NCBI GenBank assembly: GCA_021650915.1
Contig: CP091279.1
Location: 480,001-512,000 of the forward strand
DNA: 32,000 nt
DNA from: Candidatus Brocadia sp.
Lineage (GTDB): Bacteria > Planctomycetota > Brocadiia > Brocadiales > Brocadiaceae
Direction: 5' to 3'
Part shown: positions 775-29,777 of the stretch, in pieces
Position numbering within the stretch: position 1 is the first letter of the stretch
How the letters are laid out: the number at the start of each line of letters is the position of its first letter
Translations under genes and position numbers: made by a program
The notes under the pieces: generated by a model
The model's database searches: none
Told to the model about the DNA's origin: nothing
What the model saw: only the letters and a program-made list of their open reading frames with translations

Positions 775-1665
775 ATGGCTGAAAAGAGTGCAAAGCAAAG
801 AGTAGACCTGAACGAATTAAAGTCAGGCGGTTTCATAAAACAGAATCAGAAAGACCTGTTTACGGTTAGGTTGAAAGTGCCGGGAGGAAGGATTACCCCG
901 GAAAAGTTGGCGCAGATTGCAGAGATTGCTAAAAAATACAGTCGGATGGGATTTTGTCATTTAAGCTTCAGGCAATCGGTGGAAATCGTTGGTGTGCATA
1001 TTGATGATTTTGATGCTGTGGTAAAAGAGTTGGCTGCGGTGGGACAAAAGGTTGCTTCCTGCGGTCCAAGGGTACGAGTCCCTACGGCATGCGGGGGCTG
1101 TGAATATAATCCCAACGGGATTATGGATACGCAATCAAAGGCATTGGAGGTCGACGAAAAGTTTTTTGGCATCCCATGTCCCCATAAATTTAAGATTGGA
1201 TTTTCTGGTTGCCCGATTGATTGTACGAGGACGCGGGAAATGGACTTGGGCTTTCAGGGAGTGGTTTACCCGGTATGGAGCAAGGATTTGTGTAACGGCT
1301 GTACCCTATGCGCTAAGGCGTGTCAGGAAGGCGCGATTATCTCTGATAAGGAGGGCAGACCGGTATTTGACGAATCTAAGTGCGTGTATTGCGGCGATTG
1401 TATCCGTGCGTGTCCAACAGACGCCTGGAAGGACAAGAAAAAGGGCTGGCTGGTGCGTACGGGGGGGAAACACGGAAGACATCCGCGCGAGGCCGATTCG
1501 GTGTTAAATTTTCTGCCGGATAATAAGGTTAACGATTTTGTTGACGCTACCGTAAAATGGTACAAGGAGAACGGCAAGCCGAAAGAGAGAATGGGTTCCT
1601 GCATAGACCGCGTTGGTTTAGAAAAGTTTAAGAAAGACGTCGTTGGTGCATTTCTAAAAAACTGA
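775..1665 (+). CDS. Small nitrite/sulfite reductase-family siroheme/[4Fe-4S] protein with an inserted 2x[4Fe-4S] ferredoxin domain (Dsr-like / low-molecular-weight SiR type)
   Basis: GGGAG RBS lies 5 nt upstream of the ATG. The N-terminus resembles the NIR_SIR ferredoxin-like half-domain (FTVRLKVPGGRITPEKLAQIAEIAKKY..HLSFRQSVEIVGV). Cys clusters TACGGCEYN and GCPIDC are present. Two ferredoxin motifs are CNGCTLCAKAC and CVYCGDCIRACP. Confidence 0.7.
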   Translation: MAEKSAKQRVDLNELKSGGFIKQNQKDLFTVRLKVPGGRITPEKLAQIAEIAKKYSRMGFCHLSFRQSVEIVGVHIDDFDAVVKELAAVGQKVASCGPRVRVPTACGGCEYNPNGIMDTQSKALEVDEKFFGIPCPHKFKIGFSGCPIDCTRTREMDLGFQGVVYPVWSKDLCNGCTLCAKACQEGAIISDKEGRPVFDESKCVYCGDCIRACPTDAWKDKKKGWLVRTGGKHGRHPREADSVLNFLPDNKVNDFVDATVKWYKENGKPKERMGSCIDRVGLEKFKKDVVGAFLKN

Positions 1666-1679
1666 CCTAAAAACTGATA

Positions 1680-2108
1680 TTGATAATCATGAAAAACAGA
1701 AAAAAATTTGTTATCTTTGCACATAGCGGAACGTATGATAAATTGTATCAGATTATTACGTTGGCTATTACGGCGGCATCGATGGGAAAAGAGACCTACA
1801 TTTTCCTCTTTTTCTGGGCATTAAAAAGATTCGTGAACGAAGAGTTTGATCCTGCAAGACTCGTTGGTGAATGCGGTGCAGAGGGTGAAAAATTGTTGAA
1901 AAAAATGCAGGCGCTAAATCCCATTTCACTCAAAGAATTACTGCATGACGTAAGGGCCATGGGAAATTTAAAAGTGTATGCTTGTACTGGCGCGGTGAAA
2001 CTGATGGAATTGGAAGAGGTGGTTGTCAAAACAAAAGTAGATGATATTCTGGGATTGACAACCCTTTTGGAGATAGCGGCTGGCGCTGAAACACAGTTGT
2101 TTATCTGA
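1680..2108 (+). CDS. DsrE/DsrF-like (COG2210 peroxiredoxin-like) sulfur-relay family protein
   Basis: About 140 aa. KKFVIFAHSGTYDKLYQ...ITAASMG at the N-terminus and a conserved Cys in VYACTGAVKLM fit the DsrE-fold family. The more likely start is the ATG at 1689 (MKNRKKF); the listed start at 1680 is TTG. Confidence 0.6.
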   Translation: MIIMKNRKKFVIFAHSGTYDKLYQIITLAITAASMGKETYIFLFFWALKRFVNEEFDPARLVGECGAEGEKLLKKMQALNPISLKELLHDVRAMGNLKVYACTGAVKLMELEEVVVKTKVDDILGLTTLLEIAAGAETQLFI

Positions 2109-2127
2109 CGGAAGATGAGGTTGTGTT

Positions 2128-3090
2128 GTGACAATTCGTATGACAGAGAAAACGGATATGAGATACCAGCCGAAGAAGGCCGGCGTTACTTCGATCCTGG
2201 ATAAGATCGGGAATACGCCTCTTTTAAAACTTAGCAGGGTTGTGCAGGGGTTAAGAAACAATGATGTGGAAATCTATGTCAAGGCAGAATGGTTAAACCC
2301 GGGCGGGTCGGTAAAGGATCGGGCTGCATTACGAATTGTTGAAGAGGGTGAAAAAACGGGCAGGTTAACCAGGGATACCGTCATCATAGACTCTACTTCC
2401 GGGAACACGGGTATTGCTTATGCCCTCATTGGCGCAAAAAAGGGATACCGGGTAACGTTAGTGATGCCGTTGAATGTTAGTGAAGAAAGAAAGAGAATCG
2501 TGCGTGCACTTGGGGCTACGATGATATTCACTGACCCGCTGCTGGGGTCTGATGGCGCCATGTCTGAAGCGAAAAGGATTGTGACTGCAGATCCTTCAAG
2601 GTATTTTTACGCCGACCAGTATAATAACGATGCCAATTGGAAAGCGCATTTTGAAACGACGGGGGTAGAGGTCTGGGAACAAACGGGAGGTGGCGTGACA
2701 CATTTTGTTGCGTGTCTGGGAACGAGCGGTACGCTTATGGGGACCGGCCGGCGGTTGAAGGAATACAATCCTGATATTCAGGTGGTTGCAGTTGAGCCCG
2801 CTACTCCCATGCACGGATTGGAAGGTATGAAGCATATGGCCACATCAGTTATCCCCGGCATTTATGACGAGCATTTTCCTGACAGGAAGATCGCCATAGA
2901 AACAGAAGACGCGTATATGTCAGTAAAAAGGCTTGCTGCGGAAGAAGGATTGTTTGTGGGATACTCTTCCGGAGCGGCGCTCGTGGCATCCATAAAAATT
3001 GCTAATGAAATTGAGACCGGCACCGTGGTTACGGTCTTTCCCGACAGAGGGGATCGTTATTTGAGTACGAGTTTTTGGGCTGGTGAGTAA
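2128..3090 (+). CDS. PLP-dependent cysteine synthase (CysK/CysM family)
   Basis: GNTPLLKL, the PLP-lysine motif NPGGSVKDRAA, SSGNTGIA and GTSGT are canonical for the beta-family cysteine synthases. GTG start with GATGAGG RBS. The adjacent JAMM protease suggests a CysM-type enzyme that uses a sulfur-carrier protein. Confidence 0.9.
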   Translation: MTIRMTEKTDMRYQPKKAGVTSILDKIGNTPLLKLSRVVQGLRNNDVEIYVKAEWLNPGGSVKDRAALRIVEEGEKTGRLTRDTVIIDSTSGNTGIAYALIGAKKGYRVTLVMPLNVSEERKRIVRALGATMIFTDPLLGSDGAMSEAKRIVTADPSRYFYADQYNNDANWKAHFETTGVEVWEQTGGGVTHFVACLGTSGTLMGTGRRLKEYNPDIQVVAVEPATPMHGLEGMKHMATSVIPGIYDEHFPDRKIAIETEDAYMSVKRLAAEEGLFVGYSSGAALVASIKIANEIETGTVVTVFPDRGDRYLSTSFWAGE

Positions 3091-3127
3091 AGAAAAGAGA
3101 GATTGCATCGGTTGAGGGATTGAAGGC

Positions 3128-3544
3128 ATGCTGTGTATTGACAAGAATAATCTCCGTGAAGTCGGGAATGAAGCAAAAAAAAGTTATCCTGTGGAGTGTT
3201 GCGGGTTATTAATTGGCACAAATACCTCAGAAAAAAAGGTGGTTGAAGTTCGTCCCATCCGAAATACGAATACGGAAAGAAGTCATGATAGATACGAAAT
3301 TGATGGCAGTGCGTTCGTGAAAGCCGATAAAGAGGCAGCTCGAAAAGGCCTTCAGATCATTGGTATATATCATTCTCATCCTGATCACCCGCCAGTCCCG
3401 TCAGCTTTTGATACAGAGCATGCTTGGTGCGGTTATTCTTACCTGATCGCCGCAGTGGAAAACGGAGAGACTCTCGAGATCAGATCGTGGGTGTTTGATG
3501 AAGAGAAAAAACAGTTTCAGGAAGAAGAAATAAATTTGTGCTAA
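3128..3544 (+). CDS. JAMM/MPN+ zinc metalloprotease (Mec+/Mov34 family)
   Basis: Conserved Glu (VECCGLLIG) plus the JAMM motif HSHPDHPPVPSAFD (HxHx7Sx2D). Size is 138 aa. Confidence 0.85.
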   Translation: MLCIDKNNLREVGNEAKKSYPVECCGLLIGTNTSEKKVVEVRPIRNTNTERSHDRYEIDGSAFVKADKEAARKGLQIIGIYHSHPDHPPVPSAFDTEHAWCGYSYLIAAVENGETLEIRSWVFDEEKKQFQEEEINLC

Positions 3545-3629
3545 GCGGTGATGGTAGGTATTATTAAAATAAAGACGATATTCTGAAGGGCTTTGATTTC
3601 GTGAACTTGCAATTTGCAAATAAGTCAAC

Positions 3630-3890
3630 ATGGAAGGTTCTAAAATGACAGAGGAAGAAAAGATGGCACCTGACGACAAAATTGATCTCAGAGGGGTGCT
3701 TTGTCCTATAAACTTTGTAAAAACAAAGTTAAAGCTGGAAATGATGGATTCTGGTCAGGTTTTGGAGGTGATTTTAGACGATGGTGAACCCATCAGAAGC
3801 GTCCCAAGGAGTATTAAAGAAGAAGGGCATAAAATTGTAAAAGTAGAGAATTTGGAGGGCGGATATCGTTTATTGATAAAAAAGTCATAA
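3630..3890 (+). CDS. TusA/SirA-like sulfurtransferase
   Basis: DLRGVLCPINFVKTKLKLEMMDSGQVLEVILDD has the TusA-family active-site Cys context, though it reads CPIN rather than CPxP. The start may be the ATG at 3645, which has a GGAAGG RBS 6 nt upstream. Confidence 0.7.
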   Translation: MEGSKMTEEEKMAPDDKIDLRGVLCPINFVKTKLKLEMMDSGQVLEVILDDGEPIRSVPRSIKEEGHKIVKVENLEGGYRLLIKKS

Positions 3891-3916: not shown

Positions 3917-3945
3917 AAAATTATTCTTGACTTTTCCTATCGATA
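3917..3945 (+). promoter_or_regulatory. Sigma70-like promoter for the Rieske/cyt b operon
   Basis: TTGACT at 3917-3922. It is followed by TATAAT at 3938-3943 (15-nt spacer) or TAATAT at 3940-3945 (17-nt spacer). It sits about 100 nt upstream of the Rieske start codon. Confidence 0.5.
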
Positions 3946-4041
3946 AATATAATATTCGCCTTTCATAAACTGAGAGTAATTATGCACAAAAGACCTTGAA
4001 TAATTAAAAAAAATTGCGGTTTTTTACCGGAGGAGAGCGTT

Positions 4042-4560
4042 ATGGAAAGAAAAGAAGAAAAAAAAGGTTTTTCATCTGAGAAGGAAGGGGGAATTTGGTT
4101 TACTTTTTCCCGAAGAAACCTTCTGACATTGGCTGGATGGGGTTTGTTTTTTGCTTCCATTGGGGCGTATTTATCGCAGATTATGGGGTATAAAGGTTTT
4201 TTTTACCCCAAGGTGCTTTTTGAGCCTTCACCGCGATTTTCTGTCGGGGACCCAAAAGCCTTTTCAGAAAATTCAGTAACAACCCTCAAGTCCAGAAAAA
4301 TATTTGTTGTGCGTGACGGAAATAGTTTCAAGGCTATATCAGTGGTATGTCAGCATTTGGGGTGTGCGGTAGAATTTTCCAAGGAAAAAAATATCTTTGA
4401 GTGTCCATGCCATGGTAGCAAGTACTATCGAAACGGGGTGAACTTTGCCGGCCCTGCGCCCAGACCTCTCAACCACTTTGAAATTATTTTGGATGACAGT
4501 GGTAGGCTGGTTGTTGATACGAGCAAAATTGTGCCACTTGAAACGGAGTTAGTTGTATAA
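4042..4560 (+). CDS. Rieske [2Fe-2S] subunit of a cytochrome b complex
   Basis: Cluster-binding boxes CQHLGC and CPCHGS are present. The N-terminus has a twin-arginine motif SRRNLLTLAG followed by a TM helix. GGAGGAG RBS. Confidence 0.9.
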   Translation: MERKEEKKGFSSEKEGGIWFTFSRRNLLTLAGWGLFFASIGAYLSQIMGYKGFFYPKVLFEPSPRFSVGDPKAFSENSVTTLKSRKIFVVRDGNSFKAISVVCQHLGCAVEFSKEKNIFECPCHGSKYYRNGVNFAGPAPRPLNHFEIILDDSGRLVVDTSKIVPLETELVV

Positions 4561-4608
4561 TCATGTGACAGTTTATAAAAAGAATATTTTTTAGAAAGTC
4601 AGTGTTTT

Positions 4609-6369
4609 ATGAGTCAAACGACTTTGCCAAAAAAAGGAATAAAAGCACTTCTTGATCTGGATTGGTTACAACAAAATATTCGTTGTCAGCATCGATGCCC
4701 AGCCCATATGGATGTTCCAGGCTATATCCGTTTAATTAGCCAGGGCAAATACGCAGAATCATACAAATTAATGAGAGAGACCAATCCTTTTCCCGCCGTA
4801 TGTGGATATGTTTGTCCGCACCCCTGTGAATCAAAATGTAAGCGTGGTGATTTTGATAGGCCGGTAGCAATAGATGCATTAAAACGATTCGTCACCGACC
4901 ATATTTTTAAAAATAAAATAAAAATTCCACCACCAACGGTAGCCAAGAGAGACGAAAAGATCGCGGTGATTGGGGCAGGTCCCGCTGGTTTAACGGCCGC
5001 GAATGACCTTGCCGGAATGGGTTATTCGGTGACCGTTTTTGAAAAGGAGTCTCAGGTTGGTGGCATGATGATGTGGGCGATTCCATCGTATCGGTTGCCG
5101 CGTGAGCAGATTATGTTTGACGTGAGCCAGATCGTTGCTCGCGGTGTTGAGATAAAAACAAACGCTTCTATTGGAAGTCCGGGAAAATCGATTCATGATT
5201 TATTCAAGGAAGGCTACAAAGCAGTATTTATTGCGGTTGGTGCGCAAAAAGGGAAAAGGCTTGAAATTCCAGGTGAGGAAGGTACGCAGGGTGTCATGGA
5301 TTGCCTGGAATTCCTGAAAAATGTGAATGACGGTGATGTAAGGAGCCCGGGGAAAAAAGTTGCGGTCATAGGTGGTGGTAATTCTGCTATTGATGCAGTG
5401 AGGACGGCCAAGCGTCTCTGTCAGGACGCATTTATCGTGTATCGAAGAACGAGAGGGGAAATGCCCGCTTTGCCTTGGGAAATTGAAGAGGCAGAACATG
5501 AGGGCATTCAATTCCATTTTTTGTCAGCGCCTATCAGGATTGTAACTGAACAAGGGAAAGTAAAGGCTCTGGAGTGTGTTAAAATGCAACTCGGTAAACC
5601 TGACAGCAGCGGAAGGAGACGGCCTGAGCCTGTTCCTAATTCAGAATTTACCATTGAGACGGATTGCATTATTACCGCAATTAGTCAGGAAGCCGATCTG
5701 AAGTTCCTTGGCGATGATTATGGTTTAAATGTCACCAAATGGGGCACGATTGCGGTAGATGAAAATCTCGTGACCAATAAAGCAGGTGTTTTTGCCGGAG
5801 GTGACGTAACGCTTGGCCCAAGCACGATTATCGAATGTATTGCGCAAGGGCATACTGCAGCGAAATCTATCGATAAATATATCAGAGGGGAAGAAATTCA
5901 AAAGCCCAAGGAAAAGGTCTGGGTGACTCTTTTAGAGAATGAGTTCGATGAGCGTGAGGGAAATTATGATGCTGTGCCTCGTCAGCAAATGGGATTGTTG
6001 CCCGTAGAAAAACGAGAGGGAACTTTTGATTTGGTAGAACTCGGTCTTACCGAATCTCAGGCTAAGATAGAAGCTTTGCGTTGTTTGAAGTGTGACCTCA
6101 GCATCAATGTGGAGACTAATGAATGTATTCTTTGTGGTCGTTGCAGCATGGTGTGTCCTGTAGGTGCCCTAAAGCAAGTGGATGTGAGCAACGAAGGCAA
6201 AGACTATCGTCCGTTTGTCAGTAAGGATGGAATAGTAATAAAATACACCGATGTGTGTATTCGGTGTGGGAATTGTAAAGATTGTCCGGTGAGCGTAATA
6301 ACCTTAAAGCGTGTGCTTTGGAAGCCGAATGAGGAAATAAACAAAACAATGGAAGAAACGGAGGAATAG
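4609..6369 (+). CDS. GltD-like NAD(P)H:FAD oxidoreductase subunit with N-terminal FeS site and C-terminal 2x[4Fe-4S] ferredoxin domain
   Basis: The N-terminal Cys pattern (CQHRCPAH...CGYVCPHPCESKC) resembles the glutamate synthase small subunit. Two dinucleotide folds are IAVIGAGPAGLTAA and VAVIGGGNSAIDA. GGD is also present. C-terminal motifs are CILCGRCSMVCP and CIRCGNCKDCP. No TM helix is evident. Confidence 0.85.
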   Translation: MSQTTLPKKGIKALLDLDWLQQNIRCQHRCPAHMDVPGYIRLISQGKYAESYKLMRETNPFPAVCGYVCPHPCESKCKRGDFDRPVAIDALKRFVTDHIFKNKIKIPPPTVAKRDEKIAVIGAGPAGLTAANDLAGMGYSVTVFEKESQVGGMMMWAIPSYRLPREQIMFDVSQIVARGVEIKTNASIGSPGKSIHDLFKEGYKAVFIAVGAQKGKRLEIPGEEGTQGVMDCLEFLKNVNDGDVRSPGKKVAVIGGGNSAIDAVRTAKRLCQDAFIVYRRTRGEMPALPWEIEEAEHEGIQFHFLSAPIRIVTEQGKVKALECVKMQLGKPDSSGRRRPEPVPNSEFTIETDCIITAISQEADLKFLGDDYGLNVTKWGTIAVDENLVTNKAGVFAGGDVTLGPSTIIECIAQGHTAAKSIDKYIRGEEIQKPKEKVWVTLLENEFDEREGNYDAVPRQQMGLLPVEKREGTFDLVELGLTESQAKIEALRCLKCDLSINVETNECILCGRCSMVCPVGALKQVDVSNEGKDYRPFVSKDGIVIKYTDVCIRCGNCKDCPVSVITLKRVLWKPNEEINKTMEETEE

Positions 6370-6435
6370 GAGGATAATTCTTATTATGGGGGGAGGAAAG
6401 AGTACACAAAAAATGGTGGAGAAAGGGATGTTTAC

Positions 6436-7206
6436 ATGAAGCTAATTCCTGATTTGATAAAAAAAATTACAGACAATGAAATTTGGAGGTCTGTATTTCG
6501 CCATGGCTACACAGATACCCCAAGGAACAGAGCTCTTCAAATCATAAGCAACGTATGGTTGCATTTGCACCCTGCAAAAGTGAGGGAGCATGGTACGAAG
6601 ATACGGTTTACCTGGTGTATGGGGGGGATAACATTTTTTATATTCCTGTTTGAAACAATAACAGGTATTCTTTTAATGTTTTATTACGTCCCCGATGTGA
6701 ACAGGGCATATGCAGATATCGTTGATTTAATGTATGTAGTGCCGTTTGGAAGGTTTTTGAGAAATTCTCACCGATGGGGCGCTCACGCAATGGTTATTAC
6801 CGTAAGCATTCATATGTTTCGGGTATTTTTAACCGGTTCGTATAAACCGCCAAGGCAGTTCAATTGGGTGGTGGGTGTCATTTTGCTGGTTCTCACATTT
6901 TTATTAAGTTTTACCGGCTACTTGTTGCCTTGGGATCAGTTAGGCTATTGGGCTATTACCGTAGGCACCAATATGGCGCGTGCAACGCCTTTTTTAGGCC
7001 ATGAAGGACCGTTTTCGTATATTCTGGGGATGAGAGCGGATAATGACGTTCGCTTCGCCCTATTAGGTGGAACGTCAATTGATGCTCCGGCATTGCTCAG
7101 GGCTTATGTATGGCACTGTATTGCAATACCGTTGATGGCATCAGCGCTTATGATGGTGCATTTCTGGAGAGTGCGCAAAGACGGTGGGATTTCCGGTCCT
7201 TTATAA
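6436..7206 (+). CDS. Cytochrome b6-type subunit (N-terminal half of cytochrome b)
   Basis: [23 protein letters not shown] gives H-x13-[14 protein letters not shown] is present. [17 protein letters not shown] gives H-x14-H, the b6-type spacing. WCMGGITF aligns with the CLGGIT motif whose Cys binds heme ci in b6f. Confidence 0.9.
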
Positions 7207-7256
7207 GAAGTGGTGATTTAGCATAATTTAGAGAGATATTTCTGAGGAGTGGTTCC

Positions 7257-7979
7257 ATGGAAGTTAGGCAGGAAAAGAAAGGAATGGTTGAAGTTAAGGA
7301 CGATAAGGTGTTTACATGGCCCACCCTGGTTGCTAAAGAATTTTTAGCGGCTATTTTTGTTACGGTTGGGCTGCTATTCTATTCGTACTTTGTAGACGCG
7401 CCTCTCAGGGAGTTGTCAAATCCTGGACAGGCAGAAAATCCGGCTAAGGCACCATGGTATTTTTTGGGTCTGCAAGAGGCATTGGTTTATTTTGATCCAT
7501 GGTATGCTGGTGTTATACTGCCAAGCATTATCATTGTAGGACTGATTCTCATTCCGTATTTGGATAATAACCCGAAGGGAAATGGTTATTATACTTTTAA
7601 GGAAAGAAAATTTGCCGTAACCACGTTTGTTTTCGGGTACATTTTTTGGTATGTCCTGATCTACATTGGTACGGCTCTGAGGGGGCCATTTTGGGCTTTT
7701 TTTTGGCCGTGGGAACCGTGGACGCACGATTTTCCTACCCCTCCGCCAATGCATGATTTGCCTTTGCCTTTAGGAGTTGTTCTTTTGGGCGGTTTTTATT
7801 TTGCGGGATTAGTGCTTCCGGCATTAGTAAAAAAAGATTTTTTCATGAAGTTGGGCGTTATTCGATATTCACTTACGATGGGGTTACTCCTGACGATGAT
7901 TGGGACGGTAATTAAAATGGTGTTTCGTCTGGCGTTTAATGTAAAGTATATTATCGCTACGCCTTGGATTAACATATGA
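7257..7979 (+). CDS. Cytochrome b C-terminal half / subunit IV-like membrane protein
   Basis: The Qo-loop motif region reads NPAKAPWYFLGLQEAL, so APWY stands in place of PEWY. It is followed by several hydrophobic helices. At 240 aa it is longer than canonical PetD. Confidence 0.8.
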   Translation: MEVRQEKKGMVEVKDDKVFTWPTLVAKEFLAAIFVTVGLLFYSYFVDAPLRELSNPGQAENPAKAPWYFLGLQEALVYFDPWYAGVILPSIIIVGLILIPYLDNNPKGNGYYTFKERKFAVTTFVFGYIFWYVLIYIGTALRGPFWAFFWPWEPWTHDFPTPPPMHDLPLPLGVVLLGGFYFAGLVLPALVKKDFFMKLGVIRYSLTMGLLLTMIGTVIKMVFRLAFNVKYIIATPWINI

Positions 7980-8028
7980 ATTGTCGTATAATGGCTACAT
8001 TTTAAGTATTTCCAAAAATAGGTGAAAT

Positions 8029-9117
8029 ATGAGCTTACAAAGATTGATTTTTTTTGTTTTGAGCGCCTTGTTTTTCATCGCTACTTCGATGTGGCTTAAA
8101 GATGAGTTTAAGCCTGGATGGATTGAACATCAGAAGAAGTATTATGAAGAGCAAACGGTAAAAGTTGAAAAGGAGTTTTCGGCGGCGACTGTTGCAAAGG
8201 AAAAAGAGCTGTTAGGCAAGCGTCTGGCATCCCTGAAGAGACCGAAATACGAGATTAAGCAGATACTTCTGAAGGGAGATTACAGCTGGAGTAAACAGCA
8301 AAATGGAGATAAAGTTGACCGATGTATGACTTGTCACATAGATGAGGATAAATTAAAGGCCGCACATCCAAACGTAAAGGATTTTCCGTTTGATATTTAC
8401 GGGTGTACCGTCTGCCATGGTGGTATTGGAAGGGCACTGAGTGAAGAAGTTGCACATGAGGGAATGCATTATCATAAGAGACAAATGGAACTGAGGATAA
8501 CATCGGCTGAAACGATGTTCGGTTTTTGGAGTGAATTGGCGACGCTGACACCTGAAGAAAGTGATCCAAGCCTACGGTTGGAAATGGGAGACTTTAAGAA
8601 GTATAGCATTACCGGCGATAAAGCGGTGTATGTTGGAAGTCAAAAATGTCTCAAATGTCATAAAGGTTTGACCTCTCCTCATGTTGAAAGATGGCAAAGG
8701 ATAAAGTTCAAGACGTTTGAACATGTAAAGAATGCCCCTGATTATATTGCCGGTAACGAGGAATACCGAAAGACCTGCCTGAAGTGCCACACGACAGGAT
8801 ATGACGAGGCAACAGGGAAATATTCTGAAGAGGGAGTTACCTGTGAGGCATGTCATGGGGCCGGAGAGGTGTTTAGCTATTTTATGGAGATCGGCAAGGC
8901 GCCTGAAGGGCAAAAAATAGCAAAAGTCGGAACGTTTGGAACACCTTACAATGTGTGTGGGCCTTGTCACCACACTCGGAATCATGAGATGCGTCTGAAG
9001 TTTTTTCAGGAAAGAGGCGGTTCAGATGAGTGGTTTTTCCCGCAACACACAACGCCATATAAGACAGGCTTTTCTAAAAACGACGAAGCTGCCGTGCCAT
9101 TACCAAAGATGCACTGA
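8029..9117 (+). CDS. Membrane-anchored hexaheme cytochrome c
   Basis: There are six CxxCH motifs: CMTCH, CTVCH, CLKCH, CLKCH, CEACH and CGPCH. The N-terminal TM helix is LIFFVLSALFFIATSMWL. Confidence 0.9.
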   Translation: MSLQRLIFFVLSALFFIATSMWLKDEFKPGWIEHQKKYYEEQTVKVEKEFSAATVAKEKELLGKRLASLKRPKYEIKQILLKGDYSWSKQQNGDKVDRCMTCHIDEDKLKAAHPNVKDFPFDIYGCTVCHGGIGRALSEEVAHEGMHYHKRQMELRITSAETMFGFWSELATLTPEESDPSLRLEMGDFKKYSITGDKAVYVGSQKCLKCHKGLTSPHVERWQRIKFKTFEHVKNAPDYIAGNEEYRKTCLKCHTTGYDEATGKYSEEGVTCEACHGAGEVFSYFMEIGKAPEGQKIAKVGTFGTPYNVCGPCHHTRNHEMRLKFFQERGGSDEWFFPQHTTPYKTGFSKNDEAAVPLPKMH

Positions 9118-9187
9118 AGTTGATTGTTGTTATCTGCAAAATTTATAGTTTCTAAAAACGCTGGTTTTGAGGGGAGGAGGCTTAATT

Positions 9188-10933
9188 ATGAAGTTGTTGA
9201 AATTGGGCGCGATTTTATTCGCAGCCCCTTTAATGTGGAGTTTGCAGGCTGGCAAACTACAAGCACAGTCTGAAACTGAGTTAAAAGAAATGCAAAAGAA
9301 GGCTACCAGCTATTATGACATCTTGTATCCCAATGATACCTTGAAGGATTGGTTTACCAACAATGTCGGGCTGGAAAAGGGTGCTGGGCCTTGGCAAAAT
9401 CTCTACAAGCCAGTTCCGTTACAAATGTATTGGTTCCCTGTCCGCCACTACGTCAAACCCGATGGGACGTATTATGATCAGTTGCTTGAAAAATATAAAC
9501 CATCTGATTGTGTGAAATGCCATGAAGAAGTAACACCGGGGTTTGTTCATGATTGGAGAGATTCTACCCACGCAAATCCTAAAAAAAATCCCCGTTTTGC
9601 TGAGAAAACTCAGCAAATTGAAAAGTTAATCGGTCGGGAACTTAAAGAAGTTACCTGTAGTGATTGCCATGGCAAGGATCATAAAGAACTGCATATGCCA
9701 ACCCCCGCAACCTGTGGTGAGTGTCATCCTCAGCAAACAACTGAATTTATGAGCGAGGCAGAACGCGGTCGTCCAAATCATATTGAAGGCTTAGCGGCAA
9801 ATGTAATACCACCCTGGTATCCAGAAATGTTCCGCAGGGGATATCCAGCCGCTCAGTTTGGGTGCGATCTTTGTCATGCCACAGATCGTTGTAATATTTG
9901 CCACACAAGGCATAAGTTTGCAGCCTCAGAAGGAAGAAGACCTGAGGCCTGCATGAGTTGTCACATGGGTTTTGATCACCCGGATGCAGAGACCTATGGT
10001 GAATCCAAAATGGGATACATTTATCATTTAGAAGGAGAACACTGGGATTGGGAAAAACCATTGGCAGAAATTGTACCCGGCAAGGACTACAGAACGCCAA
10101 CCTGTCAGTTCTGTCACATGGATCAAGGAAATGGGAAGTTTGCTCATAACCCTGTTACAAAAGGTGTCTGGAGAATGGGAACGGTGCCGCCTAAGGGAAT
10201 AGATTACAAATCTTCATTAAAGGATTATCCGCACGGCATAAATTTACCACCTTTAAATTACAGTCTTGATATCTATTCTCCTGAAAATAAAAGGAGGTCG
10301 GAACAATGGGTATCCGTTTGTAGCAAGTGTCACAGTCCCAGGTTTGCCAGACTATATCGTGAAAACTTGAATGATTTCATGTTTGAAATGTGGAGATTAC
10401 AGGATCGGGCGCAGGCCATTTTGGACGATATTGTAGCAAATGATGCCTTTGAAGTACCTATAAGACAAAGGGATATCTTCCCGCTCGGTGATATATTAGC
10501 TGATGCGCTTGGCCCTGGACTATTAGGGGATGCGGTATATAACGCATTTAAGACCAAGGCGGGCAAGGTTCCTGTTATTGGTCCAATTCTCGGATTGCAT
10601 GGTTTGTTTGCAACAGGAAGGAATAATCCTTCAGAGATCGAAATTACCTATGCCGATATGTGGTTTGGTGACAAGGCGCATGCCTATAAAGGTGTTGCTC
10701 ATGGGCAGCAGGATATTGCCTGGTGGTATGGTGCCGCAAAAGTATATCAGAAGATTAATATCCTGGAAAGTCAGGCGATAGCGTTGAAGAGGGGAAAGAA
10801 AGTTGATGAGTTTATGGCAGCAAAGGGAAGAAAGAATGTTGCCGGTATCGTTGGAAGTATTGTTGGTATCGTAGCGGTACTTATGTTTGGTGCTGCTTTA
10901 TGGAAAAAGAGACGTGAGACGCAAAATTCATAA
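9188..10933 (+). CDS. Octaheme hydroxylamine-oxidoreductase-like (HAO family) protein with C-terminal membrane anchor
   Basis: There are eight CxxCH motifs: CVKCH, CSDCH, CGECH, CDLCH, CNICH, CMSCH, CQFCH and CSKCH. The signal peptide is MKLLKLGAILFAAPLMWSLQA. The C-terminal TM helix is VAGIVGSIVGIVAVLMFGAALW followed by KKRR. The ATG at 9188 follows a GAGGGGAGGAGG RBS, while the listed 9167 start is TTG. Confidence 0.9.
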   Translation: MKLLKLGAILFAAPLMWSLQAGKLQAQSETELKEMQKKATSYYDILYPNDTLKDWFTNNVGLEKGAGPWQNLYKPVPLQMYWFPVRHYVKPDGTYYDQLLEKYKPSDCVKCHEEVTPGFVHDWRDSTHANPKKNPRFAEKTQQIEKLIGRELKEVTCSDCHGKDHKELHMPTPATCGECHPQQTTEFMSEAERGRPNHIEGLAANVIPPWYPEMFRRGYPAAQFGCDLCHATDRCNICHTRHKFAASEGRRPEACMSCHMGFDHPDAETYGESKMGYIYHLEGEHWDWEKPLAEIVPGKDYRTPTCQFCHMDQGNGKFAHNPVTKGVWRMGTVPPKGIDYKSSLKDYPHGINLPPLNYSLDIYSPENKRRSEQWVSVCSKCHSPRFARLYRENLNDFMFEMWRLQDRAQAILDDIVANDAFEVPIRQRDIFPLGDILADALGPGLLGDAVYNAFKTKAGKVPVIGPILGLHGLFATGRNNPSEIEITYADMWFGDKAHAYKGVAHGQQDIAWWYGAAKVYQKINILESQAIALKRGKKVDEFMAAKGRKNVAGIVGSIVGIVAVLMFGAALWKKRRETQNS

Positions 10934-10961
10934 TGGCTCTTTATTCTAAAAGTCAAAAAAC

Positions 10962-10998
10962 AAAAAAGGCATCTTATTTGAGATGCCTTTTTTGTTTG
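10962..10998 (+). terminator. Rho-independent terminator of the Rieske/cyt b-HAO operon
   Basis: A perfect 13-bp stem pairs AAAAAAGGCATCT (10962-10974) with AGATGCCTTTTTT (10981-10993). The loop is 6 nt and the 3' arm ends in a T6 run. Confidence 0.85.
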
Positions 10999-11033: not shown

Positions 11034-11960
11034 ATGTTGAGATTCATAAAAGAACATACGTTAAACTCATTACAATTTGGTGCATTTCCTTCTGATTATC
11101 AGGACGATGATGAAGCATATGAAAGTTCCAGGGTTGTGATCCTGGGTGTCCCGTTTGATGGAACCGCTACCTATCAATCAGGAACAAAATTAGGTCCCAA
11201 CGCAATTCTGAATGCCTCTGTTAATGTTGAGCCATATGATGAAGAGCTGGAAGAAATTTATCCGATAGGAATTTTTACCATTGGGACGCTCAATATAGAA
11301 GAAATACACACGGATGTGAAAAAAGTCGTTGATACTCTGTATCGTGTTAGTAAAGGTATTGTAAAGGATAATAAATTTTTGGTGACTTTGGGCGGGGAAC
11401 ATTCAATATCACAGGGAATAATTAGGGCTTATAAAGAAAAATACCGAAAATTGTCTGTGCTTCAATTGGATGCACATCTTGACCTGATGGACCAATTTGG
11501 CGGCACCCAGTTTAGTCATGCAAGCGTGTCACGACGAGTAGTTGATGATTTGAAATGTAAAGTAACCAGTTTTGGTGTCAGAGTAGTATCCAAGGAAGAG
11601 TTATCGTTTGCCCGGAAAAGAAAAGATGCCATCTCCGTATTCTATGCAAAAGACATTCATGATAATGATGACTGGCACGACCAGGCTTTAGAGACGTTAG
11701 AGGATCATGTATATATTACCTTGGATGTTGATGGTTTTGATACGTCTATCATGCCAGCCACCGGTACTCCTGTGCCAGGTGGTCTAAGTTGGTATAGAAC
11801 GATTGATTTTCTGCGTAAAGTCTATAAAAACAAGAAAGTCGTTGGTTTCGATGTTGTTGAGCTAAAACCAAATCCGGGAAATGAGGCCCCAAATTTTCTT
11901 GCAGTAAATCTGGTGTATAAAAATATCGGGTTTTATAAGAAATATACGCTTTGTCTCTAG
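11034..11960 (+). CDS. speB: Agmatinase / ureohydrolase family protein
   Basis: Mn-binding ureohydrolase motifs are present: GGEHSIS, LDAHLDL and ITLDVDGFD...GTPVPGGLS. Confidence 0.8.
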   Translation: MLRFIKEHTLNSLQFGAFPSDYQDDDEAYESSRVVILGVPFDGTATYQSGTKLGPNAILNASVNVEPYDEELEEIYPIGIFTIGTLNIEEIHTDVKKVVDTLYRVSKGIVKDNKFLVTLGGEHSISQGIIRAYKEKYRKLSVLQLDAHLDLMDQFGGTQFSHASVSRRVVDDLKCKVTSFGVRVVSKEELSFARKRKDAISVFYAKDIHDNDDWHDQALETLEDHVYITLDVDGFDTSIMPATGTPVPGGLSWYRTIDFLRKVYKNKKVVGFDVVELKPNPGNEAPNFLAVNLVYKNIGFYKKYTLCL

Positions 11961-12030
11961 ATAAAGAGAGAATTACGCTGTTTTAGGTTTAGGAAAGCAA
12001 GGTTTGTCTTACTTGATAAAGGATATTTTG

Positions 12031-12756
12031 ATGTTTATGCAGTACAGAAATATACAATCTATAACATGGGTATTATGCCTGACGTTTTGTGTTGTAGCCG
12101 GGTGTGGTAATAAGGCAAGCCATCATAACAATGAAGGGATTGTGCTTTATAACAAGGGAAAATACACGGAGGCAATTGGAGAATTCAAAAAAGCTCTGGA
12201 ATTGAATCCAAATCTTTATGATGCCCATTATCACTTGGGAATTGCATATTATGCAAAGGGTATGATTGACGAATCAGTTACGGCACTAAAAAATGCAATT
12301 GAGGTAAGTCCAAATGAACCGAAAGCGCATTATAACATCGCCTTCGCATATGTAGCCAAAGAGGATGTTGCAAAAGCATTGGTGGAATATCAAAAGGCAA
12401 TCGAGCTGTTCGCAGCACGAAAAGATAAAAAAGAGGCAGATGCATACCTTTACTTGGCGGTTGCCTACAGTTTGATTGAAAGACATGATGAAGCGATAGC
12501 TGCGTGTCAAAAGGCAATAGAAATTAATCCTGAAATGGAAGATGCCCATTATCTTTTGGGAGTTTGTTACTATAAAAAAGAGATGATTGAGGCAGCTATT
12601 GCAAAGTTTAAAAAAGTTGTTCAGTTGAATCCAAAATCAGAAAAGGCGCATAACCTCTTGTTCACTATTTACGATAAACTGGGGAAAACGGAAGATGCTG
12701 TTGAAGAGGACCGCATATTGAAACAAATTGAAAGGGAACGGCGCGAGCAACGTTAG
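12031..12756 (+). CDS. TPR-repeat lipoprotein
   Basis: The signal peptide carries the lipobox VVAGC. It is followed by about six TPR units (repeated AxxxxxKAIELNP / AHYxLGxxY patterns). The track lists a TTG start at 12004, but the ATG at 12031 gives a canonical signal peptide. Confidence 0.8.
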   Translation: MFMQYRNIQSITWVLCLTFCVVAGCGNKASHHNNEGIVLYNKGKYTEAIGEFKKALELNPNLYDAHYHLGIAYYAKGMIDESVTALKNAIEVSPNEPKAHYNIAFAYVAKEDVAKALVEYQKAIELFAARKDKKEADAYLYLAVAYSLIERHDEAIAACQKAIEINPEMEDAHYLLGVCYYKKEMIEAAIAKFKKVVQLNPKSEKAHNLLFTIYDKLGKTEDAVEEDRILKQIERERREQR

Positions 12757-14477
12757 ACATGAGTATTCATATCAGAATTGTAAAATCGATAGGTGTTTTT
12801 GCCTTGTTCTTTTGATAAATACATTGCAACATCCGCATTTTTGATAAGCGAGCTTATGTCGTTGGTATCGAGTGGATAAAGACTTATACCAATACTGACC
12901 GTGGTGTAGATCTCGTGACTTTCCAGAAAGAAGGGCTTTGATAGGGCGTCAAGGATTTTATTTGCGACAATCGCCGCATTTAATGGATAAGTAATTTCCG
13001 GAAGTATAATGAGGAATTCATCTCCTCCGGTGCGGGCAATCGTATCACTTTCACGCACGCATTTTTTTAGTTGTTCGACAACGGCTAAAAGCAGTAAATC
13101 TCCTGTGTAATGTCCTAATGAGTCATTAATAGTTTTAAAATTATCCAGATCAATAGCCATGAGGGCCATAATGGTTCCCATACGCTTTGCATGGACTATG
13201 GCTACTTGGAGACGGTCTTGAAATAAATTCCGGTTTGGTAAATTCGTAAGGGGGTCGTGGTAAGCCATATGGGTTATGAGCGCCTCAGCCTTCTTGTGCG
13301 AAATTGCATTTCCTGTGATCTCTGCCATAATGCGCAACCGTGCGATGTCTTCTTCGCGCCACGGACCAGTTGTAACGACATTATCAAATCCGATAAATCC
13401 TACCAGTTCATTTTCCGCATATATTGGTAAAATCAAGAATGCTTTAATGCCCTCTTTCTCAAATTCTTCTTTTTCAGCGGCAGCTTCCTGAGGCATTTGA
13501 GAAACATCGGCAATATGGATTATATTACCTGCGTGCAAGTTCTCCATCAGCCAGGGACGCATGGCAGCGGGTATGTTATGACGATGATAAATTTCAGGAA
13601 TAACCCCTTCATTGCACCATTCATGGGTATTATCCATAATACTACCGTTATCATAAAACTGAAAGAGGTAGGTTCTGCTGGCATTGCTCAACTGACCAGC
13701 ATCAGTCAGTGCTTTGAAGACTGCCTTGTTAAAGTCAGAAGTAATAAGGAATTTTGTGGATATACTGGCAACAGTTTTTTCGAAGTCGATTCTCCGCTTG
13801 AGAGCATTCTCAGTCTGCTTGTGCTCAGCGATCTTTAACTGCAATCTCCTGTTGGCCTGTATGAGTGCTGAGGTACGCCTTTTGATTTTCAGTTCTAAGT
13901 CTTTATACTTCTGATGTAAAACATTTTCCGCTTGTCTTCTCGTGATGAATAGTCCAATAAAGCGACCAGTGGAAGCTAACAGCATGAGGATGTCGTTGTT
14001 AAATGGTTGTGATGTATAGCTTAGAAATACGAAGACGCCCATTACATTATCTTCATGTATTGCAGGGATACCCAAAGCTCCTTGAAAGCCCTCTTGCGTA
14101 GCGACTTTTGTATGATAGAAATGAGTGTTATGGACGATATCCTGGATCCAGACAGGTTTTTTAGCAGTATAAACAATTCCTGGCAATCCAACACCCGGTG
14201 AAAAAACAATTTGACTGGTTATTTTTTTATATTCAGGAATATTTACTGATGGTTTATACCAGACTTCCTCATTGCGTAACACGTTGTTCTTATTATCAAC
14301 TATCCAGTATTCACCAAGCGCTAATTCCAGATTTTCACAGATAGTTTGAAGAATTTTTAAAACAACCTTATCAGGTGTGGTTAACTCAGCCAGTATGCGC
14401 ATTATGACATGCAATTCACGACATCGCTCAGACAGATTACTCGTTGCCGGGTTATGTTCTGTGTTGAATAAATTCAT
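12753..14477 (-). CDS. GAF-GAF-coiled coil-GGDEF diguanylate cyclase
   Basis: The C-terminal GGDEF domain has an intact active site (RTGGDEFLIIL). An RxxD I-site (RESD) lies 5 residues upstream. Two GAF-like regions are separated by a coiled coil (LELKIKRRTSALIQANRRLQLKIAEHKQTE). Confidence 0.85.
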   Translation of the reverse strand: MNLFNTEHNPATSNLSERCRELHVIMRILAELTTPDKVVLKILQTICENLELALGEYWIVDNKNNVLRNEEVWYKPSVNIPEYKKITSQIVFSPGVGLPGIVYTAKKPVWIQDIVHNTHFYHTKVATQEGFQGALGIPAIHEDNVMGVFVFLSYTSQPFNNDILMLLASTGRFIGLFITRRQAENVLHQKYKDLELKIKRRTSALIQANRRLQLKIAEHKQTENALKRRIDFEKTVASISTKFLITSDFNKAVFKALTDAGQLSNASRTYLFQFYDNGSIMDNTHEWCNEGVIPEIYHRHNIPAAMRPWLMENLHAGNIIHIADVSQMPQEAAAEKEEFEKEGIKAFLILPIYAENELVGFIGFDNVVTTGPWREEDIARLRIMAEITGNAISHKKAEALITHMAYHDPLTNLPNRNLFQDRLQVAIVHAKRMGTIMALMAIDLDNFKTINDSLGHYTGDLLLLAVVEQLKKCVRESDTIARTGGDEFLIILPEITYPLNAAIVANKILDALSKPFFLESHEIYTTVSIGISLYPLDTNDISSLIKNADVAMYLSKEQGKNTYRFYNSDMNTHV

Positions 14478-14963: not shown

Positions 14964-16132
14964 TTGCAAAAGCTTGTATAATTTTTAATGAAAAGTACCG
15001 TTCGTCATGAAATCCATAAGCTTTTCTTTTGATAACTTTGATCTTATTATTAACCCCTTCGAGTTTACTGGTATGAATTTTATAATCACAGTGATTCAAG
15101 ATTCCGTAGCGGTATTTTGTAAGCATATTTGCAAACGTATTCACGACAGAATAGTTGAGCGTTTTCGCTAAGAGGCTCCATTCATCAATGGCTTTTCTCG
15201 CCCACGTCCGTGAGGTATAGGTCCAAATATGTTTGAGCTTATCTTTAAGAATCAGAACGGTATTTATGGTTTCATTAAGCGACAAGAGCTGTTTGAGATG
15301 TTCTCGATGTTTTTTCCTGCGAATATTTCGTTTGTTTTTTAACAAAAGATATTTTGAACTCTTTTTGGTATTCAGCATTTCGCACCTTGTCAATAACTTT
15401 ACCAAAACTTGAAACCACATGAAACAGGTCAAAGACTATCTTAACATGAGGCACGTGCTTTTTTACTGCATGAATATAAGGATCCCACATATCCATGGCA
15501 ATGGCCTCAAGCGCCTGCCTTTGTTCCTCTGTCATACCCGCAAAGAAGGTTCCCAGCGTTTCTTTTGTTCTTTCCTTTCCCACCCAGACTACGCGGCCAC
15601 TCAGATAGTCCAGAACAACAGTCAAATAGCGCTGTCCCTTCTTAACAGAGATTTCGTCTACTGCCAGTATGCGAAGATTCTGATAATCTGTCTGCGCGTA
15701 TTGTCGTTCCAGAAAAAACTTGTCGATGGTTTTTACGGTTTTCCAGTTAATTCCAAAATGTTTTGCAACTTCGGTTACGGTTAACACTTTACACAATTCG
15801 TGAATATACGCTGCTAAACGATGCGTAACACGACTGTAGGGTTGAAAAAACCCCAAGCCTTCAACTACAATTCGATTGCACGGCTCACAGGCAATCTTAC
15901 GATACGAACAATGTATCCATACGCGAACTGAACCAGGATTCAGATCCCGCAAAGATCGTTTGTCATGACGGTAAATGCGCTGTGCTTTGCTGCCACACGC
16001 ATGACATATTGGACGAAATCGTTCATCGGGCACGGCAGTAAGCTGAGATATCTCAGCATCAGGAAAAACAGTTTGCTTCGTAATTCTTACCCGCTGAAAA
16101 GGAAAATATGGTAATATACTTAATGGGGACAT
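14959..16132 (-). pseudogene. ISL3-family transposase, frameshifted (two overlapping ORFs, 15275-16132 and 14959-15432)
   Basis: The N-terminal zinc-finger region is CHACGSK...CEPCN. The DDE region includes ILAVDEISVKKGQRYLTVV and AMDMWDPYI. The C-terminal part (YLLLKNKRN...LEGVNNKIKVIKRKAYGFHD) continues in the +1 frame. The switch maps to the T5 run at 15362-15366 (A5 on the coding strand), and removing one base restores ...AEYQKSSKYLLLKN. Confidence 0.85.
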
Positions 16133-16145
16133 TGCTGGTCTCCTG

Positions 16146-16151
16146 TAAATA
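16146..16151. repeat. TAAATA direct repeat, copy 1 (left flank of tandem IS)
   Basis: The identical hexamer also lies at 18002-18007 and 19855-19860. Each copy directly abuts an IS end. Confidence 0.85.
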
Positions 16152-18001: not shown

Positions 18002-18007
18002 TAAATA
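18002..18007. repeat. TAAATA direct repeat, copy 2 (junction between the tandem IS copies)
   Basis: It is the only sequence between the right IR of copy A (ends 18001) and the left IR of copy B (starts 18008). Confidence 0.85.
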
Positions 18008-29282: not shown

Positions 29283-29418
29283 CGTTCATTCTCCTCTATA
29301 AGGACGTATCCTCACCTTGTGCATCTTATTATCTTAAGGTTTTTATTTTATCATTTTACTGAAAATATGCAATATATCACGGAAACACCCAACCCGAACG
29401 AATCGAAAAGACAAGCCA

Positions 29419-29449
29419 ACCCTGTCAGGGTTCAAAGCCCTGACAGGGT
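29419..29449. repeat. Perfect palindromic hairpin (12-bp stem, 7-nt loop) in the divergent intergenic region
   Basis: ACCCTGTCAGGG-TTCAAAG-CCCTGACAGGGT. It lies 137 nt upstream of the MscK-like start codon. No adjacent T-run is present on either strand. Confidence 0.6.
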
Positions 29450-29777
29450 AGTGCCTACTCACGTTTTTGCCAAAAATGTCAAAATATGTTTTATTAGACA
29501 CTATTCCCCTTTTCCCGCCATCGTAGGGAAGAAAAGGAAATAGTTATTTTTGTTGCGGCCTCGCTGCATCATGGTATGATTGTTTTACATACATGGTCAC
29601 AATTTCATTGCATCATTCATTAAGTCTCATTATAGTATTACCGTATAAAATTTTTTTTGCAAGTTTTTACAATCCCCTTCACCTCCTTGCTAAGGGGGAA
29701 TTGGTTGCGGCTGTGCTGCGGTATGATAGGTTAACTCTTTTTACTAACTTCATTTTTTATCTCTCAGGTATAACTCT

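Follow-up and report, generated by a model that had tools for sequence, protein, structure and literature searches.

Does a Rieske/cytochrome b (R/b) complex divide the two electrons of quinol between NAD(P)+ and nitrite? Anammox bacteria need NAD(P)H for CO2 fixation, obtained from electrons at the quinol level, and in addition NO (or NH2OH) obtained from nitrite. The complex known as R/b-3 is the foremost candidate for a system that performs both tasks together, by a type of quinol-based bifurcation that has never been demonstrated in any Rieske/cytochrome b complex. The question is raised by an operon of Candidatus Brocadia sp. that lies in a 32,000-nucleotide (nt) stretch of DNA, here called the window (assembly GCA_021650915.1, contig CP091279.1, positions 480,001-512,000, forward strand; coordinates given without a locus label are those of the window). 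The operon is near-certainly the Brocadia orthologue of R/b-3 of Kuenenia (kuste4569-4574). As described below, we consider bifurcation its rather probable mode of action; the comparative analysis also revealed a related five-gene form that lacks the NAD(P)-reactive subunit.

Six consecutive plus-strand open reading frames (ORFs) occupy positions 4042-10933, each with a strong independent family assignment on which Pfam and NCBIfam agree. They encode, in this order, (i) a Rieske protein, (ii) an NAD(P) oxidoreductase, (iii) a cytochrome b6, (iv) a subunit IV (SUIV), (v) a hexaheme cytochrome c and (vi) an HAO-like octaheme cytochrome c; all are co-directional and separated by gaps of 48, 66, 50, 49 and 70 nt, which carry ribosome-binding sites (RBSs). 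The initial annotation of the window had described this six-gene arrangement with gaps of 48-70 nt and had matched it to kuste4569-4574. The ORFs, their assignments and their order were confirmed, as were the gaps (given the start codon of the last gene discussed below), and the match to Kuenenia proved correct: the window proteins are 71-92% identical to those of three Kuenenia loci with the same gene order (L027, L028 and L030), and the Rieske protein's soluble domain (residues 63-172) is 87% identical to the crystal structure of Kuste4569 (PDB 9RK4). The residues Ser/Tyr of the Rieske protein, His43 and Arg247 of cytochrome b6 and Arg511 of the flavoprotein, considered below, are all conserved between the two systems, which differ in the host species (Brocadia in the present case); nothing structural distinguishes the window copy.

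The locus is thus already known, both as the orthologue of a named and studied complex and because its proteins are present in public assemblies. The flavoprotein has a residue-for-residue match in GCA_002050315.1, in GCA_003577195.1 and in several sequencing runs, and the gene calls around it equal those of the window. Of the species representatives, Brocadia sp. WS118, B. carolinensis and B. pituitae are nearest, with 93-95% identity of the HAO-like protein. The window therefore contributes only one more orthologue of a locus that has been sequenced, annotated, expressed and modelled, and it renders the biochemical question no more testable than the work on Kuenenia already does. The statement that the system is known only by annotation is outdated, since co-migration, expression, Rieske crystal structures with potentials, and AlphaFold3 models have all been published, and the novelty attributed to the locus was overstated. 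Co-migration of the products, put forward as a decisive check, has in fact been reported for Kuenenia R/b-3, in which all subunits co-migrate in complexome profiling (data cited by Hauser et al. 2025). The same authors determined Rieske structures, measured potentials of +303 and +335 mV and presented AlphaFold3 models of Kuste4569-4573, in which an extra heme b is predicted on His43. Moreover, Kuste4574 is highly expressed in Kuenenia. The description of quinol-driven bifurcation as an unresolved proposal agrees with the literature, which reports the same composition and the same open proposal: one electron would travel uphill to NAD(P)+ and one downhill to nitrite. Recent papers credit this idea to Kartal and co-workers; Hauser et al. 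(2025) discuss it at length, and the energetic argument for it has been set out in published work.

Conservation of the locus was analyzed in a tblastn survey with the HAO-like protein as the query, which recovered 72 genome loci. The six genes were present in unchanged order in 41 of these, from Brocadia, Jettenia, Kuenenia, Loosdrechtia and Scalindua (i.e. the families Brocadiaceae and Scalinduaceae), and nine further loci, interrupted by contig ends, were compatible with this order. A full flavoprotein gene (81% identity) was found in locus L020 of Jettenia ecosi. Since the same order recurs in 41 independent genome loci, a chance grouping of the six genes is excluded. In a concatenated tree the window nests within the Brocadiaceae clade. 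The expectation that homologous loci retain both the GltD-like and the HAO-like gene held for the 41 six-gene loci, but not for seven others, in which the HAO-like gene was kept and the GltD-like one was missing.

These seven loci (L047:6759-11734, L048:6847-11752, L049, L051, L052, L054 and L061) come from deep-branching Brocadiales metagenome-assembled genomes (MAGs), including RIFCSPLOWO2_12_FULL_50_35, which is assigned to Bathyanammoxibiaceae. They carry a five-gene form, Rieske-b6-SUIV-hexaheme-HAO, with a clean junction of 12-45 nt between the Rieske and b6 genes; no homologue of the flavoprotein was found in up to 21 kb of their flanking sequence, and in the concatenated tree they constitute a separate deep clade. 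Since these loci keep the other five genes without it, the flavoprotein is not a universal part of R/b-3-like systems. A further candidate, L015 of a Brocadia-like Rifle MAG, was rejected as a natural five-gene form: between its intact Rieske and b6 genes lies a flavoprotein remnant of about 230 nt, composed of four short in-order fragments (L015:5145-5428), which is probably a pseudogene in decay or else an artefact of assembly or curation. Variation of another kind was observed in Scalinduaceae, where a second six-gene copy (L037, L040, L044 and L045) encodes an HAO protein without the C-terminal membrane helix. Both HAO types are present in MAG Maj_2_bin.64 (L035 and L037), and in L045 the hexaheme gene is tandem-duplicated.

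According to the published bifurcation model, which we favour with reasonable though limited confidence, R/b-3 would be a single membrane complex built on a b6f-like core that comprises the Rieske protein, a cytochrome b6 carrying the hemes bP, bN and cn, and an SUIV of five helices. Menaquinol would be oxidised at a positive-side site, where its two electrons would separate. The first electron would pass through a high-potential Rieske cluster to the anchored hexaheme cytochrome and on to the anchored HAOr-like octaheme subunit, which would reduce nitrite to NO or, in Brocadia, possibly to NH2OH. The second would descend along the b hemes to the negative side and, instead of (or besides) reducing quinone, would pass into an NfnB-type flavoprotein, with its four Fe-S clusters and its FAD; this protein would in turn reduce NAD(P)+, probably NADP+. 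In this model we infer that bifurcation takes place, which way the electrons run in the flavoprotein, and what the HAO-like subunit uses as substrate and forms as product.

The high-potential branch begins with the Rieske [2Fe-2S] subunit (kuste4569 orthologue, 172 amino acids, positions 4042-4560, plus strand; PF00355, E 5.6e-12), which carries an RR motif at its N-terminus along with a membrane helix. Its cluster-binding boxes, C103-x-H105...C108 and C121-x-C123-H124, are invariant across 49 orthologues, as are Ser126 and Tyr128, the hydrogen-bonding signature of high-potential Rieske clusters, whose equivalents have been tied to the potential of +303 mV measured for Kuste4569. The next carrier would be the hexaheme cytochrome c (kuste4573 orthologue, 362 amino acids, positions 8029-9117, plus strand), with six CXXCH motifs and with Cytochrome_C554 and c7 domains; its sole solved relative is remote (3OV0, 1e-5). 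The operon contains no gene for cytochrome f or c1, and this cytochrome with its c554/c7-type domain takes their place. Membrane anchors had been predicted for both multiheme proteins, and matching hydrophobic segments were indeed found, i.e. a hydrophobic N-terminus (residues 1-19, the predicted anchor) in the hexaheme cytochrome, and a signal-peptide-like hydrophobic N-terminus together with a C-terminal membrane helix (residues 558-576) in the HAO-like protein.

The HAO-like octaheme cytochrome c (kuste4574 / hao3 orthologue, 581 amino acids, positions 9188-10933, plus strand) contains eight CXXCH motifs (PF13447, 6e-48). Although the longest ORF begins at TTG 9167, the start codon is most probably ATG 9188, with the RBS GGGGAGGAGG in front of it; public gene calls use this start too, and the gap of 70 nt to the hexaheme gene follows from this choice. 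Residues 63-546 match KsHAOr (Kustc0458; PDB 6H5L) at E 2e-174, compared with about 1e-40 to 1e-46 for oxidative HAOs. KsHAOr lacks the Tyr-heme cross-link and reduces nitrite to NO, whereas its oxidation of NH2OH and N2H4 is negligible (0-0.02 U/mg, 100- to 1000-fold below that of oxidative HAOs). Published analyses place hao3/kuste4574 among the cross-link-free, reductive HAOs, and the hao3 product of Brocadia sinica has been proposed to be an NH2OH-forming nitrite reductase. The HAO-like subunit is thus most probably reductive. It shares with KsHAOr (Kustc0458/0457) the octaheme HAO fold and, most probably, the missing cross-link, but differs from it in having a C-terminal membrane helix and a Rieske/b operon context, in lacking a gene for a diheme partner, and in carrying Tyr in place of Trp within a W-W-x-G motif. 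The conserved Ser126/Tyr128 pair and the identity of this nearest solved relative are what favours the high-potential branch of the model.

The tyrosine in question, Tyr521 (positions 10727-10729; W519-W520-Y521-G522), is the point at which an oxidative role has to be weighed. If the complex worked in reverse, this subunit would oxidise NH2OH, NO-level species or N2H4, and the electrons would pass via the hexaheme cytochrome to quinone and/or NAD(P)+, by analogy with the HAO-c554-cM552 chain of aerobic ammonia oxidisers. Among the R/b-linked orthologues Tyr521 never varies, in contrast to the unlinked paralogues and KsHAOr, in which Trp or Leu is found; Tyr521 lies one to two residues off the position to which the Tyr that cross-links the heme in oxidative HAOs is aligned. 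When a profile of 11 HAO3/HAOr sequences was compared with the PDB using HMMER, Tyr467 of NeHAO and the corresponding tyrosine of the HOX-type chain 6T5E fell on the Tyr521 column. However, the alignment scores weakly here (E 2.5-5) and needs additional indels. NeHAO and 6T5E, the two solved cross-linked enzymes in the alignment displayed, and the HDH-like database protein P0048 have in common the spacing A-H-x6-T-Y, whereas the window protein has A-H-x6-W-W-Y-G, with Tyr one residue further. Moreover, the W-Y-G motif is also present in distant Geobacter-type members of the family. Tyr521 was therefore rejected as a sign of an oxidative enzyme, although the sequence alone does not decide about the cross-link, a search with the C-terminal 163 residues having matched 6H5L only. 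The far closer match to KsHAOr, the reductive classification in the literature, and the +303 mV Rieske cluster, a poor route into a quinone pool at -70 mV, also count against reverse operation, which we consider very improbable.

An HAOr-like octaheme protein with a membrane anchor was also detected outside the anammox group, in Candidatus Magnetominusculus of the Nitrospirota (L064:4895-11599). It is 49% identical to the window protein, and its gene is preceded by genes for a diheme cytochrome c, a COX2-like protein, COX1 (heme-copper oxidase/NOR family), SCO1 and another diheme cytochrome c. This cluster may represent a module converting nitrite to NO and further to N2O.

The low-potential branch of the bifurcation model involves the membrane core and the flavoprotein. 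The cytochrome b6-type subunit (kuste4571 orthologue, 256 amino acids, positions 6436-7206, plus strand; PF00033, E 5e-42) is nearer to b6 of the b6f complex (E 3e-43) than to cytochrome b of bc1 (1e-26). Its heme ligands, His112/His126 and His227/His242, show the 14/15 spacing typical of b6, Cys61 within WCMGG is the attachment site of heme cn, and His43, Arg245 and Arg247 are present and invariant. His43 and Arg247, together with Arg511 of the flavoprotein, are residues of the electron path in the published AlphaFold3 models. The SUIV-like membrane protein (kuste4572 orthologue, 240 amino acids, positions 7257-7979, plus strand) was recognised by a weak PF00032 match (E 3.5e-4) and by the NCBIfam models ExtQ (4e-11) and PetD (2e-3). 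It contains five hydrophobic segments, i.e. five predicted helices, and its quinol-site motif is APWY in place of PEWY, invariant in 58 sequences.

With the cytochrome b6f complex and the menaquinol-oxidising b6c-type complexes of Firmicutes and Heliobacteria, R/b-3 shares the split into b6 and SUIV, the b6-type His spacing, the cn Cys and a Rieske protein. In contrast to these complexes, it (i) has no cytochrome f or c1, (ii) has five helices instead of three in SUIV, with APWY instead of PEWY, (iii) carries an N-terminal extension of b6 with His43 and His45, and (iv) has a flavoprotein and an octaheme enzyme attached. R/b-2 of Kuenenia (kustd1480-1485) likewise has a b6-like core with a five-helix SUIV, a multiheme cytochrome c replacing cytochrome f, and an NAD(P) oxidoreductase, but another multiheme protein and no HAO-like subunit; the window Rieske protein matches the R/b-2 structure 9RK3 at E 1e-20, compared with 8e-58 for 9RK4.

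The second gene of the operon encodes a soluble FAD/NAD(P) oxidoreductase of the NfnB/GltD type (kuste4570 orthologue, 586 amino acids, positions 4609-6369, plus strand; Fer4_20, Pyr_redox_2 and Fer4 domains; PRK12771, 514.5 bits), in which no hydrophobic helix or membrane segment was found. It is composed of an N-terminal two-cluster domain (Fer4_20), the FAD and NAD(P) folds, and, at the C-terminus, a 2x[4Fe-4S] ferredoxin domain. It retains Arg511, and its 21 cysteines form the same groups as in the four-cluster path that has been published. Among solved proteins, 9BOV, 9N5U NfnA, 4YLF NfnB and 5JCA NfnI are closest (E 1e-113 to 1e-87); with the small subunit of GltD included, the E values extend to 1e-67. 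The motifs GAGPAG and GGGNSA...VYRRTRGEMPA match those of NADPH-binding Nfn subunits, and the pattern GGGNxAxD...VYRRT is common to the solved relatives. Because the VYRRT motif is shared with NfnB and NfnI-L, NADP(H) is the likelier nucleotide. With the NfnB / NfnI-L / GltD family the window flavoprotein has in common the two-cluster domain, the FAD and NADPH Rossmann motifs and VYRRT; it differs in the added C-terminal 2x[4Fe-4S] domain and in the lack of an NfnA or GltB partner, and the R/b-3 flavoprotein is predicted to dock instead on the membrane cytochrome b in the published model. The b6-type His spacing, the presence of Cys61, His43, Arg247 and Arg511, and an NfnB-like flavoprotein with an NADPH-site motif are what favours the low-potential branch.

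Several observations weigh against the bifurcation model, and the first of them concern these same residues. The Ser/Tyr pair of the Rieske protein is also invariant in the seven five-gene loci, which have no flavoprotein, and so are His43, His45, Cys61 and Arg245/247 of b6; the latter are invariant, too, in Rieske-b6-SUIV-multiheme operons from outside the anammox group. As these residues are kept in flavoprotein-free relatives, and hence are a trait of the wider family, they cannot alone argue for NAD(P) coupling. In the literature, an activity is on record neither for Kuste4574 nor for the complete complex. In the published models the quinone site on the negative side seems to be open to access, and the published modelling yielded no model that includes the HAO subunit. 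Finally, when nitrite was replaced by NO, kuste4574 decreased only 2.6-fold, compared with 28-fold for kustc0458.

The wider family mentioned above is large, as the group of b6 proteins with a five-helix SUIV has more than 7,700 members in the databases. In the non-anammox operons of the type Rieske-b6-SUIV-multiheme c (e.g. L075 of Thermodesulfovibrionales, and L073/L074), b6 is 63-67% and SUIV about 50% identical to the window protein, with invariant His43, Cys61 and Arg247. These operons encode neither a flavoprotein nor an HAO, and the partners of the core are large multiheme cytochromes of 700-950 amino acids.

Such relatives lend weight to another scheme, in which the Rieske protein, b6, SUIV, the hexaheme cytochrome and HAO would make up a complete, ordinary proton-motive Q-cycle quinol:nitrite oxidoreductase (forming NO or NH2OH), and the flavoprotein would be no outlet for bifurcated electrons but an accessory that feeds electrons from NAD(P)H to the b/cn hemes or the quinone pool, or else a regulator. 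The seven five-gene loci imply that the rest of the system works without the flavoprotein, and this scheme is strengthened accordingly. The identity of the core cofactor residues in the five- and six-gene forms points in the same direction, as does the fact that in the published models the cn site remains accessible, with a nearby His suited to quinone chemistry. On the other hand, all 41 loci of Brocadiaceae and Scalinduaceae have kept the flavoprotein gene as an insert in the operon, between the genes for the Rieske protein and b6, and the product of this gene co-migrates with the complex in Kuenenia. Reduction of quinone by NAD(P)H at this point would also waste energy that NADH dehydrogenases conserve, and a Rieske cluster at +303 mV working with menaquinol implies a very low potential of heme bP. 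We therefore regard the Q-cycle scheme as unlikely, albeit with appreciable weight, and retain bifurcation as the favoured reading.

If the cofactor residues do not discriminate between the two forms, other positions in the core might do so. A search for core residues that co-vary with the flavoprotein yielded only a handful, and the definition of a docking surface from them was rejected, the residues being too few. The clearest is Gly250 of b6 (positions 7183-7185), a one-residue insertion in the C-terminal tail (KDGGISGPL vs KD-GFSG), which is present in all flavoprotein-bearing operons and absent from the five-gene forms, the non-anammox relatives and chloroplast b6.

A further reading, to which we give a little less than even probability, is that the six-gene complex is derived: an NfnB-type NADP reductase would have been plugged into an older five-gene quinol:nitrite reductase, which survives in Bathyanammoxibiaceae-like lineages. 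Were this so, the Rieske signature, His43 (the proposed ligand of the extra heme b) and the heme cn site would predate NAD(P) coupling and would provide no evidence for it, and the two natural forms would offer a ready-made comparison, with and without the flavoprotein, for the bifurcation hypothesis. A bolder extension of the derived-state view is that the clade-invariant Tyr521 might modify or cross-link the catalytic heme, which would make the membrane-bound HAO chemically distinct from soluble HAOr. The five-gene form and the non-specific nature of the "bifurcation-compatible" residues together sharpen what an experiment must show. Papers that mention Bathyanammoxibiaceae as well as Rieske yielded no description of an R/b-3 lacking the flavoprotein, and neither the five-gene form, nor the non-specificity of the residues, nor the second Scalindua copy was found in the literature searched; its coverage is incomplete and novelty is not proven.

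Sequence signals at the borders of the operon are consistent with joint expression of its six genes. A predicted sigma-70-type promoter lies at positions 3927-3955 on the plus strand (TTGACT, a 17-nt spacer and TAATAT; alternatively a 15-nt spacer and TATAAT). A consensus scan of the whole region for promoters gave 20 matches vs 19.4 expected, i.e. not above chance; the call is based not on this generic scan but on a phylogenetic footprint, since the block CTTGACTTTT...ATAAATATAATATTCGCC is kept in 13 of 14 Brocadiaceae loci (Brocadia, Jettenia and Loosdrechtia), while both its flanks have diverged beyond alignment. We infer that this element acts as a promoter. The predicted intrinsic terminator (positions 10958-10997, no strand assigned) begins 24 nt past the last stop codon and forms a hairpin with an 18-bp stem, symmetric in having an A-run before it and a T-run after it. 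Its folding energy is -23.7 kcal/mol (z = -6.9), and none of 200 shuffled sequences folded as well. No terminator comparable to this hairpin was found inside the operon. The borders set in the initial annotation (3917 and 10998) take in both the promoter element and the hairpin. The conserved promoter footprint, the RBS-bearing gaps of 48-70 nt and the single strong terminator after the last gene together provide good support for one transcription unit comprising all six genes.

The same features bear on the idea that the six genes are mere neighbours whose products do not form one machine. Physical evidence of co-assembly comes from Kuenenia only, and to this extent the idea has something in its favour. 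In Kuenenia, however, all subunits co-migrate, and gene order and spacing are conserved in two families across a deep divergence; the operon is bordered by one conserved putative promoter and one terminator, and both cytochromes are membrane-anchored. We consider a mere neighbourhood of the six genes hardly credible.

Genes of other functions flank the operon on both sides. Upstream (positions 775-3890) lie genes for a sulfite-reductase-like Fe-S protein, a DrsE-like protein, CysM, a JAB/Mec+ protease and a TusA-like protein, i.e. a set related to sulfur-carrier cysteine synthesis. In most loci of Brocadiaceae the CysM and JAB genes occupy this upstream position, which the JAB gene also has in Scalindua. 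The terminator is followed by genes for an agmatinase (11034-11960), whose position is kept throughout Brocadiaceae, and for a TPR lipoprotein (12004-12756). The latter gene is met by a convergent minus-strand gene (12753-14477) for a signalling protein of 574 amino acids with a GGDEF motif at its end (RTGGDEF, as read from the translation).

Further downstream (15275-19653) the window contains a transposase of the ISL3 family on the minus strand, followed by two pairs of DDE_Tnp_1 transposase-like ORFs (16336-17800 and 18192-19653). The GC skew changes sign near 20 kb of the window. In addition, a gene for tRNA-Gln(TTG) was identified by ARAGORN at positions 29378-29470 on the minus strand; with 93 nt it is unusually long for that tRNA.

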